A stretch of DNA of 20,000 nucleotides from positions 48,704-68,703 of the IMG/VR virus record IMGVR_UViG_3300030101_003124; one strand, written 5' to 3'. Positions 14,255 to 20,000 of the stretch are shown here, one piece after another. The stretch is from an uncultured virus (IMG/VR IMGVR_UViG_3300030101_003124) (taxonomy: Duplodnaviria > Heunggongvirae > Uroviricota > Caudoviricetes > Crassvirales). The position numbers and the translations under genes were made by a program. The notes beneath the pieces are model-generated. The model was not told the DNA's origin. It did no database searches and saw nothing but the letters and a program-made list of their open reading frames with translations. Each line of letters begins with the position of its first letter. Position 1 is the stretch's first letter.

Positions 14255-15022
14255 TTACAGATAATCAAGCACTTGCGAGTGATCGACATTCTCTATTAGT
14301 TTATCTACGGCTTGCTTTTTTAACTGTGAAACCCTAACATATGAGCTGCTACCTTCAATACCTAATTTCTTAGCTATTTCTTTAGCAGAATGTTTATCAC
14401 AGTTTAAACCGTAACTTAAAACCAGTACGTTATATTCTTTTTCTGTTAAATGTTTTCTTAACAAACCGTCAAGATAAGCATTTAGCAGATCCATATTATA
14501 AGGTTCTGATTTATCAGGAATTTGCATTATCATGTCTTCTTCCTGATTGTTCTTAGGTTTTTCATCTATACTTAAAAATATAGAGTTAAAGAACATTGCT
14601 ACCATTTTTTTATCTTTACCGAAGTTTCTACGTATTTCATTTAGTTTGTGCTCAGGTATTCTCATGTCACCACGATTAATATCTATAGCTCTACGTATTG
14701 CACCTCGTATACGTTTAGATAAAAATGATTTCATTGTTTTTTCTTTGTCTTCTGATTTATCAAATAATTCCCAGTCTATTCTGTCAACAGCTTTTGTTAA
14801 ACCAGCATTACCCTCTTGTATGAGGTCCATGATAGTCATAACACCTGAAGCTTGTTGACTAGTTGAAAATTTTCTTGCTATGTTTTCAGACAAAGGTAAG
14901 AAGTTTACAATCAACTGATCTCTTGTTAATTCTTTATATTCTTTGAATTTAGGCAAAGCCCAGATCAGTTCTTGTATCTGCTTCTTGTAAATAACATAGT
15001 TTCGTATATTATAACTCTTCAT
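14255..15022 (-). CDS. Phage sigma70-family RNA polymerase sigma factor
   Basis: Region 2 MDLIQEGNAGLTKAVDR...IRGAIRRAI...MRIPEH; region 4 LTEKEYNVLVLSYGL...SAKEIAKKLG...VRVSQLKKQAVDKL. Confidence 0.88.
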   Translation of the reverse strand: MKSYNIRNYVIYKKQIQELIWALPKFKEYKELTRDQLIVNFLPLSENIARKFSTSQQASGVMTIMDLIQEGNAGLTKAVDRIDWELFDKSEDKEKTMKSFLSKRIRGAIRRAIDINRGDMRIPEHKLNEIRRNFGKDKKMVAMFFNSIFLSIDEKPKNNQEEDMIMQIPDKSEPYNMDLLNAYLDGLLRKHLTEKEYNVLVLSYGLNCDKHSAKEIAKKLGIEGSSSYVRVSQLKKQAVDKLIENVDHSQVLDYL

Positions 15023-16514: not shown

Positions 16515-17385
16515 AATTTCTTATACATTTAAATAACGGGTGTCTGTATGAACCTGCTTGTGTTCGTTGAAAATAGGTAAAGGTTGCACGCTTGCCAATG
16601 TAGTCAGTGATGTTGTTAAGCATCTCCGCAAGATCCTTGTAGTTGTAGCCTTTGCCCGGCGGACAACCGAACTCTACACCTTCGTCATCTTGCATAATGA
16701 ACTTGCCAAGTGTGCCTGTCCTTTTGCCTTTACCTGTTTCATAACCAATGATAGTTGCTTCAGTATCGCTGAAGTCTTTGAACTTCATTAGATCGTAAGA
16801 CCTACCGTGTTTGTATAGACCATCTAGTCTAATGATAGAGCCTTCGTAGCCCTCACTTAAGAACGTGGCATGAAGATCTCTAGCATAATTGTAGCTGTCA
16901 ACTAGTTTTGCAGGTACATACTTTATCTGCGCATCATAAATATCAGAGCAAACAAGGTTATGCATACGAGTTTTGTAGCTGTCGTAAACCGGAGCTGATA
17001 TATAATCGTATACATGAAACTGTACAAGATGTTGAGCTTCTAGTCTATCATCTGCAGTAGGCTTTTGCTTACGAACTAATGATATAATTTTTTCGAAATC
17101 ACGTTTTAGTTTGTGATTATATAATTCGCCATCGAGTGTTACATCAGGGTTATTAAAGAAAAACGGTTTTAAAGCATTTGTAATATGCCTTACGTTTTTA
17201 AATTCTTTACCAGTACGTGAATACGCTTTAACACTGAACGAGGCTAAGTTTTCTTGACCAGGAAAGTCTGATACTCTTTTGATTAGACAGCGGACGCCGT
17301 CTAGTTTAGGTTGTATGTACACAGGTAACGACCAGTCAACTCTGTTGTCGTCGAACTTGTGTGCTAGCATTGGTTTTAATGTCAT
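16507..17385 (-). CDS. ATP-dependent DNA ligase
   Basis: QPKLDGVR (motif I), LDGELY, FHVYD, EGYEGSIIR, LMKFK, C-terminal OB fold ending YRHP. Confidence 0.93.
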   Translation of the reverse strand: MTLKPMLAHKFDDNRVDWSLPVYIQPKLDGVRCLIKRVSDFPGQENLASFSVKAYSRTGKEFKNVRHITNALKPFFFNNPDVTLDGELYNHKLKRDFEKIISLVRKQKPTADDRLEAQHLVQFHVYDYISAPVYDSYKTRMHNLVCSDIYDAQIKYVPAKLVDSYNYARDLHATFLSEGYEGSIIRLDGLYKHGRSYDLMKFKDFSDTEATIIGYETGKGKRTGTLGKFIMQDDEGVEFGCPPGKGYNYKDLAEMLNNITDYIGKRATFTYFQRTQAGSYRHPLFKCIRNYE

Positions 17386-17684
17386 AGGTTATTAAGTTTA
17401 TTTTGTATTATATCTAATTTTCTTTTTATTATTGCGGCCTTCATATATTCTTCTTGGCCTTCATACATATTCATAAGTGTTGTTAGTCTAGCTAATTCAC
17501 CGACTAAAAACTCTTCTTCTGTTTCTTTAAATGGCAATTGTCCTTTTATTAATTCACCGATTGTCATTGGTGTGTTATACTGATGCCATTTAGGACTAGC
17601 AGATTTTTCTATTAGTATATCTAATACTTTATCAGCTAGTATATTTAATTCATCTTCGGTCATATTATTATTATCCGACTTCAT
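17382..17684 (-). CDS. Hypothetical protein with UVR-like C-terminal helical hairpin
   Basis: MYEGQEEYMKAAIIKRKLDII resembles the UvrB/UvrC 'E.YE.AA..RD.I' motif. Confidence 0.5.
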   Translation of the reverse strand: MKSDNNNMTEDELNILADKVLDILIEKSASPKWHQYNTPMTIGELIKGQLPFKETEEEFLVGELARLTTLMNMYEGQEEYMKAAIIKRKLDIIQNKLNNL

Positions 17685-17690
17685 TCGTAT

Positions 17691-18146
17691 TTAGTTTGTA
17701 TATACTTTTTCATATCTAGTTTTACCGTTAGCAAAATCAGTATACTCCATATCTTCCATATACTTAGATATAATCTTTTCTGGTTTTAATACAAATACAT
17801 TTCTACTTGAGTAGTTGTCATAACAACTTACCCACCTGTCTTGTTTACCTGTAAATATAATATAAGTATAATGGTGATCTATATGAGCAGGGTCTCTATA
17901 TAAATAGCAGCTGTCATAGTACATATCATGAACTAATTTTGCAGCAAGTCTTGCGCCATCTTGACTAGGATTAGCGTGTAACCAGTTTGCTATTTGTACG
18001 CCTTGCCATTGTGGATAACCATCGTGATGTAAATACATATTTACATAGCTTTTGTCACTGAACCATGCAGGAACTTCTGCAAAACCTAGCTCAGTATCTT
18101 CTGCGTGTCGTCTATCTACGACCATTGTTAAGTTTCTTGTTGCCAT
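17691..18146 (-). CDS. Conserved phage hypothetical protein (YxHxDGYP motif)
   Basis: MATR...MYLHHDGYPQWQG...HYTY pattern. Confidence 0.65.
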   Translation of the reverse strand: MATRNLTMVVDRRHAEDTELGFAEVPAWFSDKSYVNMYLHHDGYPQWQGVQIANWLHANPSQDGARLAAKLVHDMYYDSCYLYRDPAHIDHHYTYIIFTGKQDRWVSCYDNYSSRNVFVLKPEKIISKYMEDMEYTDFANGKTRYEKVYTN

Positions 18147-18149
18147 ATT

Positions 18150-18464
18150 TTATAAATTATCTCGTTCTACAAATAATGCATAGCCAAGCTTTGCATAATT
18201 AATTATATCGCCAAACCTACTAATCATAGGCTCTGCTTTGTTTAGATCATGGTTGCTAACGTGAGCAGCAACTGAACTAACTTGCTTATCAAAGTAAGCA
18301 TACCATACAACTAAAGGGTCTACATTTAGCTTTTTAGCTGTAGATTTAAAGTTGTTTAATACGTCGGTGTCCTGCATAGTATATTCAGGACCTTTTTTTC
18401 TCATAGTCTCTCTAGCATATTCGTCTAGTTTACCTACTAATATATCAAAATGTGTGTCTTTCAT
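18150..18464 (-). CDS. DUF1599/nucleotide-modification-associated all-alpha domain protein
   Basis: RKKGPEYT...VLNNFK...FDKQV...ISRFGDIINYAKL. Confidence 0.6.
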   Translation of the reverse strand: MKDTHFDILVGKLDEYARETMRKKGPEYTMQDTDVLNNFKSTAKKLNVDPLVVWYAYFDKQVSSVAAHVSNHDLNKAEPMISRFGDIINYAKLGYALFVERDNL

Positions 18465-18470
18465 AGTTAT

Positions 18471-18704
18471 TTAATCTAGTAGTACCATGTATGCTTTAGG
18501 GTTAGCTGATCTGAACCAGTCTAAACCTTTTGCGGTTATATCATAGTGACCTGTTACCTGACTACCCATAATTAAATCATACATAGCTAACTCGTTAGCA
18601 TTTAGTTGATATGATTCACCTGAGAAAGGATTAGTAACTGTATCACCTTCTGTATAGTTAGCACCATCGTACCATTTTGGTAATTCTTTATTATTCTTCT
18701 TCAT
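18471..18704 (-). CDS. Hypothetical phage protein
   Basis: VTNPFSGESYQL...GLDWFRSANPKAYMVLLD; tightly packed. Confidence 0.65.
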   Translation of the reverse strand: MKKNNKELPKWYDGANYTEGDTVTNPFSGESYQLNANELAMYDLIMGSQVTGHYDITAKGLDWFRSANPKAYMVLLD

Positions 18705-19146
18705 AGTAATCTTCTGAGTCTAATAACTCATCTTTTTTATCGTTAAACAAATCTTCGTATATATCTTGCCACCATTGTTCTAGCTCGTGGTTAAAATCCC
18801 ACTCCATATCGTCCCATAAGTGAGGTTCTACCCACACATCACTACCTGATGTTAACTCGCTAATAGCTCGTTCTGACCACTCTGGATAATTTTCATATTG
18901 ATAACCATCTTGTGATACATAAGGTCTCTCATCATGAGTACACCAGTATATATCATAACTATCAGCTGTTGATTCGCTGTATATTTTTAGTTTGTACTTA
19001 CTATCACACCAGTCAGATTTAGTGTCTAGTTTGCCGCCATATTCCGTATCGATATATTCAAGAAGCCAAGGCGCATCTGGTTCTTCCATTATACCATCAT
19101 CGACTAATGCCGAAGTGATAATATCGTCTGTTAGTAATTCTGCCAT
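18691..19146 (-). CDS. Highly acidic hypothetical protein
   Basis: Asp/Glu/Trp/Tyr-rich 151-aa ORF, coupled to the upstream ORF by TAATG. Confidence 0.7.
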   Translation of the reverse strand: MAELLTDDIITSALVDDGIMEEPDAPWLLEYIDTEYGGKLDTKSDWCDSKYKLKIYSESTADSYDIYWCTHDERPYVSQDGYQYENYPEWSERAISELTSGSDVWVEPHLWDDMEWDFNHELEQWWQDIYEDLFNDKKDELLDSEDYYEEE

Positions 19147-19385
19147 TATTCTTTTATTGTAAACTTACTACCGTACATAACATCGTGTGCTGTTACTTCA
19201 TGCGTATAAAGACCTGAGTATGTCATTAGGCTACTAACATCACTAAGTGATAAGTCGTGCCATAATGTTGAACTCATGAGTTTATACTTTAGCTTTTTAG
19301 CACTGTCATATTTTCTAGCACTAGCTTGCAACTCTGATTTGATATGAGGTTGCAGTAAGTCGTAAATTGATTTAATTTTACTCAT
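19146..19385 (-). CDS. Hypothetical protein
   Basis: ORF 19146..19427; ATG at 19385 (MSKIKS) preceded by an A-rich leader is preferred. Confidence 0.6.
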   Translation of the reverse strand: MSKIKSIYDLLQPHIKSELQASARKYDSAKKLKYKLMSSTLWHDLSLSDVSSLMTYSGLYTHEVTAHDVMYGSKFTIKE

Positions 19386-19452
19386 ATTGTTTTTATTATA
19401 TTTAATTATACTGATTATATTATCCATCTACATTCGTATTTATATTGTAATA

Positions 19453-19575
19453 CCGGGGGTGACGCCGTGCACGACGCCCACGCTTTCAGGGGAAAATAAG
19501 TTGAGTCATCGAGCGCCTCGATAAAGCGTCTTGTATTCTCGAACTTATTAACCGTCCTTCGTGTTTTAACCCTGT
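19453..19575 (-). ncRNA. Candidate structured RNA with crossing stems (pseudoknot or switch)
   Basis: Stems 19495-19505/19538-19549, 19480-19486/19523-19529, 19508-19513/19517-19522, 19487-19491/19570-19574, plus hairpin 19461-19478 whose G.U pairs form only on the - strand. Confidence 0.5.
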
Positions 19576-19578
19576 TAG

Positions 19579-19678
19579 TGGATGTGGCAGGAATCGAACC
19601 TGCGTTAAGCGTCACAGAAGACATCCAGTACTCTTTCAACTGTTCCAACTGTTCTTAGCTTCTAACCATTTCACACCC
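19579..19678 (-). ncRNA. tRNA-like RNA resembling the tmRNA tRNA-like domain, without an mRNA-like domain
   Basis: Acceptor GGGUGUG/CACAUCC with G3.U70 and discriminator A; T arm GCAGG-UUCGAUU-CCUGC; stemless D-loop AAAUGGUUAGAAG; no U8 and no anticodon arm. Confidence 0.7.
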
Positions 19679-19875
19679 ATAAAGCAGCAGTTGTAGACAG
19701 GTAGTTAACTAGTATTGTCATTTATCTACAATTTCTGTTTTGCGAACCATAGTAGGAATTACCGCTAACGTGACCTGTACGCCGCCACTAAACCGCCTCA
19801 CATAATACACTTCCGTACGCTCGCTTATACCCGTCGGCAGTCGGCACCACAAATGTTATTGGCGAAATTTATTAT

Positions 19876-20000
19876 TTAGTTACCGTGTTCTATAGTTTTT
19901 TCACTTGTTACCATCCACTCACAGTCATTTACTTTGTGACCTGCGCCGTATAAAAACGCTTCACAAGACTCTGAGTCAGGATTCCATTTATTTTCATCAC
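19876..20000 (-). CDS. C-terminus of a hypothetical protein entering from the right edge
   Basis: Open frame DENKWNPDSESCEAFLYGAGHKVNDCEWMVTSEKTIEHGN* ending at TAA 19876-19878. Confidence 0.6.
   Translation of the reverse strand, partial: DENKWNPDSESCEAFLYGAGHKVNDCEWMVTSEKTIEHGN

Follow-up and report, generated by a model that had tools for sequence, protein, structure and literature searches.

Our study revealed, towards the end of a 68,703-base IMG/VR record of an uncultured crAss-like virus (IMGVR_UViG_3300030101_003124, order Crassvirales; rated 100% complete), a gene for a 100-nt RNA that resembles the head of a transfer-messenger RNA (tmRNA). The final 20,000 bases of the record, positions 48,704 to 68,703, are referred to here as the window, and the RNA as the mini-tmRNA. 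Judged by comparison of its sequence with relatives and with known RNA families, the gene is best described as a phage-encoded tRNA-like domain (TLD) of a tmRNA that has alanine identity and no message. The parts of the gene are as follows.

19579..19678, minus strand: mini-tmRNA, lacking a coding sequence (CDS) and made up of the TLD and helix 2; 100 nt from G1 to the discriminator A73
19672..19678, minus strand: acceptor stem 5′ strand GGGTGTG, pairing with 19580-19586
19662..19671, minus strand: stemless D-loop analogue AAATGGTTAG; its GG would meet the T loop
19658..19661, minus strand: helix 2a 5′ strand AAGC, with its partner GCTT at 19607-19610; the homologous columns covary at 5/5 pairs
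19611..19657, minus strand: variable insert, with an internal loop, an ACAG/CTGT helix, a tandem GAACAGTTG repeat and a CAGT/ACTG hairpin in the minimum free energy fold
19607..19610, minus strand: helix 2a 3′ strand GCTT, followed by the linker AAC at 19604-19606
19587..19603, minus strand: T arm GCAGG, TTCGATT, CCTGC, from the sequence and the alignment of homologues
19579..19586, minus strand: acceptor 3′ strand CACATCC and A73 (19579), from the sequence and the alignment of homologues
19576..19578, minus strand: 3′ trailer CTA, at the place where CCA would be encoded

The mini-tmRNA gene and its conservation

The 7-bp acceptor stem, with G1-C72, G2-C71 and G3.U70, can be read directly from the sequence, as can the lack of a D stem and of an anticodon arm. 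An initial annotation, made from the letters of the window, had described this acceptor stem with A73 (19678-19672 with 19586-19580), a canonical T arm (19603-19587), CTA rather than CCA at the 3′ end (19578-19576) and a stemless D-loop. All four descriptions were confirmed, and the D-loop matches the unpaired 5′ segment of the tmRNA model. That TAAG and CTTA are 44 nt apart was likewise correct, as were the tandem repeat and the CAGT/ACTG hairpin. The short helix placed in the position of helix 2 is present and covaries, but its register, TAAG/CTTA, was wrong by four bases; homologues put its first pairs between AAGC (19661-19658), which follows GGTTAG immediately, and GCTT (19610-19607), which immediately precedes AAC. 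The stretch enclosed by helix 2a is only 47 nt long (19611-19657), and the RNA is without pseudoknots, resume codon, tag frame and stop.

Homologues were collected using a ligase query, which gave 50 related loci, a loose two-motif pattern, which gave 60 more stretches, and a 27-base 3′ core, which was found in 86 stretches of the viral_contigs collection, 80 of these loci being examined (labels such as L071 denote fetched related loci). In 80/80 of the loci examined, a complete mini form lay within 200 bases of the 27-mer (82 matches, 68-185 nt), and no full-length tmRNA was present among them. At least 90 distinct homologues were obtained from ~100 uncultured viral contigs, with a median of 95 nt and a range of 68-185 nt. 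The ligases of the phages that carry them are only ~60-90% identical. A covariance model (R1) was built from an alignment of 43 distinct sequences (A1); it scores the copy of the window, which is part of its training set, at 81.2 bits. Counting the window, 26 of 51 sources held a strong R1 match (≥47 bits), in every case on the strand of the ligase and upstream of it. Among the 25 sources without a strong match, 10 had <2.6 kb of upstream DNA and 15 had ≥3.8 kb. The gene is common in this phage clade, not universal.

Beyond these collections, a 25-mer from the 3′ end had 7 matches in 185,579 species genomes. Six were mini forms on contigs of metagenome-assembled genomes (MAGs), the seventh was a weak 59-nt match on a 272-kb contig, and no full tmRNA with the same 3′ end was found among the 7. 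The window's own 25-mer had 0 matches in viral_contigs, because the acceptor variant of the window is rare. Neither 701 bases nor a 110-base member of the family, used as blastn queries on 50,697 phage records, brought up a family member among the cultured phages; the matches were to tRNAs and no larger than a T arm. Some contigs hold two different mini-tmRNA genes separated by a few hundred bases, namely L074 (595-688 and 1079-1168) and L118 (266-353 and 423-525), and the L193 and L205 contigs likewise carry two each.

In A1, 7/7 acceptor and 5/5 T-stem pairs form in 43/43 sequences, with compensatory changes. Pair 4:69 is C-G in 36 sequences, A-U in 3, G-C in 2 and U-A in 2, pair 6:67 is U-A in 41 and C-G in 2, and pair 3:70 is G.U in 42 and A-U in 1. 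The G3.U70 wobble is required for alanine identity. As pairs 4:69 and 6:67 switch between Watson-Crick types while 3:70 stays a wobble, the wobble itself is selected. Two-sided changes were seen at 4/5 pairs of the T stem, around an invariant T loop, and at 5/5 counted pairs of helix 2; A8, G13 and T14 are invariant. When the 43 sequences were shuffled, 0/500 controls reached the observed pairing and covariation values, and when the partners were slid, pairing fell from 92.9% to at most 52%. The acceptor and T-stem covariation for which the initial annotation had proposed a test is borne out. A further 74 distinct rows in a model-fitted alignment agree with A1, a fitted alignment being one that leans to structure. 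Across the homologues, G3.U70 was found in 88/90 and A73 in 90/90. Taken together, the covariation of the mini-tmRNA helices indicates that the structure is under selection.

Conservation is sharply bounded. One acceptor sequence is common to 79/90 homologues, and the insert within helix 2 is hypervariable, differing almost wholly between homologues. A four-way alignment with flanks showed identity from G1 to CTAA with an abrupt stop on both sides, the insert being largely replaced. The bases after A73 are CTA in 80/90, CAA in 6 and CCA in 1, the first base being C in 90/90. Neighbouring ordinary tRNA(CAT) genes of relatives end in the same way (CTA), and the tmRNA gene of one Bacteroidetes MAG is likewise without an encoded CCA.

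The assignment to tmRNA was supported by Rfam. Searched by E-value, the best family was tmRNA (RF00023; 38.4 bits, E 8.5e-14), which was also the best of the tRNA clan, and the alignment matched both ends of the 374-position model, with 265 central positions reduced to 11 bases. The tmRNA cut-off of 47 bits was passed by three relatives of 78-103 nt, L094 (71.7 bits), L022 (65.9 bits) and L026 (59 bits); other loci of the family scored 25-37.7 bits. The genes of L022 and L026 are syntenic with that of the window, and their D-loop motif, TGGTTTTGAC, is also that of two full-length tmRNAs of 371 and 400 nt (174 and 142 bits), each from a Bacteroidetes MAG. The third, L094:595-697, is a mini-tmRNA of 103 nt that is rich in G+C; it lies on an unrelated viral contig of 39 kb and looks like a separate lineage of the same kind.

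Other classes of RNA were considered and rejected. An ordinary or intron-containing tRNA-Ala is contradicted by the lack of a D stem and an anticodon arm and by the lack of a consistent ARAGORN call. ARAGORN, one of the searches that the initial annotation had suggested, called no gene in the window and none in 86/90 homologues, its 4 calls being mutually inconsistent; with intron mode included there was again no consistent call, 86 and 87 of 90 being without any. The permuted or two-piece tmRNA family (RF04321) gave a weak partial match (16.5 bits, E 0.41), and a two-piece arrangement with a downstream GGACGGT segment was discarded since there is no pairing between this candidate second 5′ strand and the 3′ strand of the acceptor. 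Among the 43 sequences, the insert has no conserved tag frame, a chance alanine-rich ending of the AA-stop type occurring in 1/43, and a tag frame in the mini-tmRNA was rejected on this ground and on the ARAGORN results. An antisense role of the insert (19611-19657) on the phage's own genome was also ruled out, as its complementarity to that genome reaches at most 11 bases, which is the level of chance.

Relation to known tmRNAs

The list of Hudson, Lau and Williams includes 'Mycobacterium phage DS6A (TLD only)' (PMC4131195), and a DS6A-like molecule, chargeable or not, is described as a strong inhibitor of Escherichia coli tmRNA, perhaps by titrating SmpB (PMC4131195; PMC11915505). The tmRNA database of 2025 counts 9 'Standard, no CDS' entries among 97,179 and includes 79 phage sequences, with DS6A as the one CDS-less phage case (PMC11915505). 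The novelty implied by the initial annotation was therefore overstated, a TLD-only phage tmRNA having already been published (PMC4131195, PMC11915505). We located the DS6A RNA at JN698994.1 28478-28560 (L127:679-761; tmRNA Website tmID 11587), in the gap between gp33 and gp34. It scores 43.2 bits against the Rfam tmRNA model, under the cut-off of 47, and 40.5 bits (E 1.4e-8) against R1, and is followed by CTA. The GenBank record JN698994.1 carries no annotation of this RNA.

The mini-tmRNA of the window and the DS6A RNA are both phage-encoded, in standard unpermuted order, with a G3.U70 acceptor, a stemless D-loop, a short helix 2 and a T arm, and without a tag frame or CDS. They differ in that DS6A offers a single ~80-nt sequence of 70% G+C from an actinobacterial phage, whereas the family of the window comprises at least 90 sequences from marine, probably Bacteroidota, phages and has a hypervariable insert and companion RNAs. 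Their D-loop motifs suggest that the two probably arose separately, each from the tmRNA of its own hosts. No description of the marine family was found in the literature searched, the supplementary tables of PMC11915505 and PMC10690425 lying outside that search. The family is a much larger membership of a kind known from one phage, and not a new class.

Compared to a standard tmRNA (RF00023), the RNA of the window retains the alanine acceptor, the D-loop analogue, the ACGC-T-arm-acceptor sequence and helix 2, but ~265 model positions are absent, and with them the pseudoknots, resume codon, tag frame and stop. Full-length tmRNAs borne by phages (the mycobacteriophage Bxz1 group, Bacillus phage G, the two-piece ssrA of OM43 phage Melnitz and the SsrA annotated in the crAss-like phages cr10_1 and cr125_1) are likewise viral copies of the host's rescue RNA; they keep the tag frame and presumably finish trans-translation, which the RNA of the window cannot. 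Tag-less tmRNAs are also described from organelles, with CDS-less forms in mitochondria (jakobid and others) and two plastid genes of ~65 bp in Mallomonadaceae; the mitochondrial ones are found together with SmpB and probably still assist where an mRNA is incomplete (PMC11915505). The organellar RNAs share with the mini-tmRNA the reduction to the tRNA-like part, the lack of a tag frame and a presumed SmpB partner. However, in mitochondria the gene is permuted, consists of two pieces and lies in a reduced genome, whereas the gene of the window has standard order and lies in a virus whose host keeps a full tmRNA.

These comparisons bear on how such RNAs are regarded. CDS-less tmRNAs have been treated as rarities, and one abundant marine phage clade alone gives 90 distinct constrained copies of a family that is missed by ARAGORN (86/90 uncalled) and, for the gene of the window, by Rfam at its cut-off. 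This suggests that a tag-less tmRNA head directed against host trans-translation is a recurrent and under-annotated phage strategy. With a head that is frozen, an insert that is free and two copies with A3-U70, the family also offers a natural set of variants for testing the requirements of SmpB, alanyl-tRNA synthetase (AlaRS) and the ribosome.

Proposed function and its rivals

The role that we cautiously favour, and consider somewhat probable, is that of a tag-less tmRNA mimic competing with the host tmRNA for SmpB and stalled ribosomes. Under this proposal, a CDS-less gene would reproduce just two parts of a tmRNA of Bacteroidota type, the TLD and the base of helix 2, and would be transcribed early, together with a structured leader. 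RNase P would cut at G1, and the 3′ end would be trimmed and completed to CCA. Host AlaRS would charge the RNA via G3.U70 and A73, and SmpB would bind it; a six-frame search of the phage genome found no SmpB, so the partner would be that of the host. EF-Tu would then deliver the charged RNA to stalled ribosomes. Having no resume codon, tag frame or stop, the mini-tmRNA cannot complete trans-translation, and its expected effect would be to suppress both the tagging and the degradation of proteins synthesised in the course of infection. The strict retention of G3.U70 suggests that charging matters and would favour an active role on the ribosome over pure titration.

Several observations weigh against this account. 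The fold stability of the mini-tmRNA is ordinary (z -1.56; 17/200 shuffles fold as well), so that the case for the RNA rests on comparison, and the copy of the window lies under the Rfam tmRNA gathering cut-off (38.4 vs 47 bits), with no match for the gene at gathering thresholds. The 15 related loci with ≥3.8 kb of upstream DNA and no strong R1 match are to be counted here also. In 2/90 homologues (L071:595-698 and one row of the model-fitted alignment) the pair is A3-U70, and these copies should not accept alanine. Other anticodon-less tRNA-like RNAs without alanine identity occur in the same phages, and a general role of tRNA 'top halves', for example as processing signals, could cover the mini-tmRNA too. 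Finally, the benefit that a lytic phage would draw from blocking ribosome rescue is not obvious.

An alternative that we regard as unlikely, yet the most serious of the rivals, is that the RNA is a tag-less rescuer: charged and bound to SmpB, it would accept the nascent chain, the peptidyl-RNA would drop off or be hydrolysed, and ribosomes would be freed without tagging. It draws on the same structural evidence as the inhibitor, and such a role has been proposed for the CDS-less organellar tmRNAs. The presence of G3.U70 in 88/90 is also in its favour, as it suggests that charging matters, and pure titration of SmpB would need none (PMC4131195). However, there is no known release mechanism for a peptidyl-TLD without a stop codon, and the sole relative to have been tested is reported as an inhibitor.

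The RNA could instead be an element of processing or stability, with an RNase P or 3′-end site that cuts the early transcript, releases the upstream RNA or guards a 3′ end, its likeness to tmRNA being a matter of ancestry; we consider this quite improbable. tRNA-like processing signals are represented by tRNA punctuation, the t-elements of plant mitochondria and mascRNA, and like the mini-tmRNA they are anticodon-less mimics of the acceptor and T arm beside coding or other RNA units. In many relatives the gene abuts other structured RNAs or sits 6-8 nt past the stop of an open reading frame (ORF), several other anticodon-less tRNA-like RNAs are found in the same clusters, and the CTA trailer (80/90) looks like a common processing signal. 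In L071, three tRNA-like genes, namely an RNA of the AACTAGG type described below, the mini-tmRNA and tRNA(CAT), are spaced 4 nt apart. A processing signal, however, needs no G3.U70, A73 or tmRNA-type D-loop, yet the family of the window conserves these while neighbouring pairs covary. The companion tRNA-like RNAs, with Watson-Crick 3:70 pairs and no alanine identity, also speak against an explanation by processing.

More doubtful still is the idea of a sponge or cofactor for another host factor that binds the tmRNA head, such as RNase R or an immune nuclease. This would rest on analogy with the phage anti-CRISPR AcrIIIA1, which co-purifies with tRNA halves and a ~90-nt tmRNA fragment, RNAs that bind RNase R (PMC11662646). 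A hypervariable insert beside a near-frozen head (79/90 with one acceptor) could reflect an arms race. Against it, no AcrIIIA1-like or other partner was recognised nearby with Pfam and PHROGs among the 6 ORFs at 17382-19427, which gave no Pfam hit and one PHROG match, of unknown function. The initial annotation had offered, as possible functions, titration of SmpB, EF-Tu or AlaRS, a block of trans-translation, ribosome release without tagging and a nuclease decoy; a decoy for anticodon nucleases is unlikely, because the RNA has no anticodon loop.

tmRNA genes are frequent integration sites of phages, which may carry pieces of these genes (PMC9004378, PMC11590407), and a decayed tmRNA gene or an attP fragment from integration at the host tmRNA would make the gene a remnant, but we judge this highly improbable: both acceptor halves are present, 90/90 distinct copies are mini forms across phages with ligases ~60-90% identical, covariation points to selection on structure, no integrase was found among 37 ORFs of the window (PHROGs) or 53 ORFs (Pfam; 43 outside the window), and the 7 matches of the 3′ 25-mer in 185,579 species genomes include no full tmRNA. 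On the evidence of Rfam, covariation and the 90 mini forms, the earlier reading of a TLD-only phage RNA without message, neither a decayed tmRNA nor an att remnant, was upheld.

Genome context and companion RNAs

A 74-base repeat at the two ends of the record shows that the assembly closes into a circle. The genome encodes a primase-helicase, an ATP-dependent ligase, Erf, an exonuclease, ribonucleotide reductase, thymidylate synthase and an endolysin. A phage GroEL/GroES pair and a sigma factor were also observed (G000:C1:3779-5594; window 14255-15022), along with crAss-type muzzle and BACON domains. The best cultured relatives of the primase are from Cellulophaga, Tenacibaculum and Flavobacterium phages, at ≤41.5% identity, and the sequencing runs that contain the phage DNA are marine; on both grounds, the host is likely to be one of the Bacteroidota. 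On the minus strand of the circle, the order is tRNA(CAT), a 47-nt minihelix, four small ORFs, ~200 non-coding bases and the mini-tmRNA, the first two lying ~1.4 kb upstream of the last. On the 3′ side of the mini-tmRNA are ~150 non-coding bases and then early and replication genes. The following further elements were delimited.

19679..19786, minus strand: companion structured RNA of 108 bases that abuts the 5′ end of the mini-tmRNA; 17 distinct copies
19793..19864, minus strand: conserved non-coding module containing CCGACGGGTATAAG; 93% identical to L028:2439-2511 and L005:2925-2983
19543..19578, minus strand: conserved trailer after tRNA-like genes, starting with CTAACAGGGTTAAAAC, from sequence comparison
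19401..19452, minus strand: AT-rich intergenic element of ~50 nt; up to 4 copies per related locus
G000:C1:1148-1194 (outside the window), minus strand: 47-nt acceptor/T-arm minihelix, 54 nt after tRNA(CAT)

The mini-tmRNA family thereby leads to companion RNAs without a known family. The structured RNA at 19679-19786 has a closing helix (GGCGGCG/TGCTGCT), two crossing helices that form a pseudoknot (ACAGGT/ACCTGT and GTAGA/TCTAC), a variable hairpin and the loop core AATACTAGTTA. In its alignment, pairing extends to 96.5% of cells, with two-sided changes at 5 pairs, compared to at most 55.5% pairing in slid controls, and no Rfam match was found for it. Most of the 17 copies end 0-6 nt before a mini-tmRNA; the copy at L016:1907-2030 stands apart. 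A tag frame in this upstream RNA was considered and rejected, since its variation tracks base pairs and not codons.

In the 47-nt minihelix, a 7-bp acceptor, which covaries from phage to phage, is combined with a T arm and a 15-nt connector containing GG; the discriminator is T, and CTA comes next. Relatives were found at L016:2099-2145, L023:1160-1206, L021:2671-2717 and L025:2844-2890, and Rfam gave no match for it. A further anticodon-less tRNA-like family of 78-150 nt, the AACTAGG type, has the acceptor AACTAGG/CTAGTTA, which covaries in L016, and a normal T arm. Copies were seen at L006:2513-2662, L016:1655-1732, L023:2985-3096, L050:2052-2185, L060:407-504, L064:321-413 and L071:562-594, often directly 5′ of a mini-tmRNA, and no Rfam family was found for this RNA either.

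These RNAs allow a broader conjecture, to which we attach little weight: the mini-tmRNA might belong to a phage toolkit whose modules are tRNA 'top halves' without an anticodon, every module imitating the identity of another host tRNA or tmRNA so as to capture another host factor. Its members would be the alanine-type tmRNA head, the 47-nt minihelix (discriminator U), the 78-150 nt AACTAGG-type RNA and the pseudoknotted leader released by RNase P. Their targets would be SmpB, RNase R, synthetases or immune sensors, with the insert evolving in an arms race and the head frozen.

The other elements recur in related loci. The L028 and L005 copies of the 19793-19864 module sit elsewhere in their clusters of tRNA-like genes, and the CTAACAGGGTTAAAAC trailer directly follows mini-tmRNAs (L005, L006) as well as 47-nt minihelix genes (L016, L021). 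Copies of the AT-rich element lie before genes, as in L003 (1067, 1989, 3034 and 4703), and it is possibly the early promoter of the clade, serving here the next gene (ATG 19427). A scan of 19300-20000 for sigma-70 promoters and terminators, which does not extend to promoters of Bacteroidota or phage type, found no promoter on the minus strand and no terminator.

Contigs from four metatranscriptome runs bear on transcription; such contigs show no ends, strand or level, and DNA may be present in RNA libraries. One contig of 323 nt at depth 294 (X17) covers 19662-19820 and continues for 168 nt unlike the window, a continuation that by eye resembles the insert of the L007 mini-tmRNA. Another, from a different study (X19), covers 19670-19829. 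Both span the leader and enter the first bases of the mini-tmRNA, a weak hint, from contigs, that the two might be transcribed together. In a further metatranscriptome contig, 18152 and 19574 are linked through 7 other bases, and some relative is apparently without the small ORFs that occupy 1.4 kb downstream of the mini-tmRNA.

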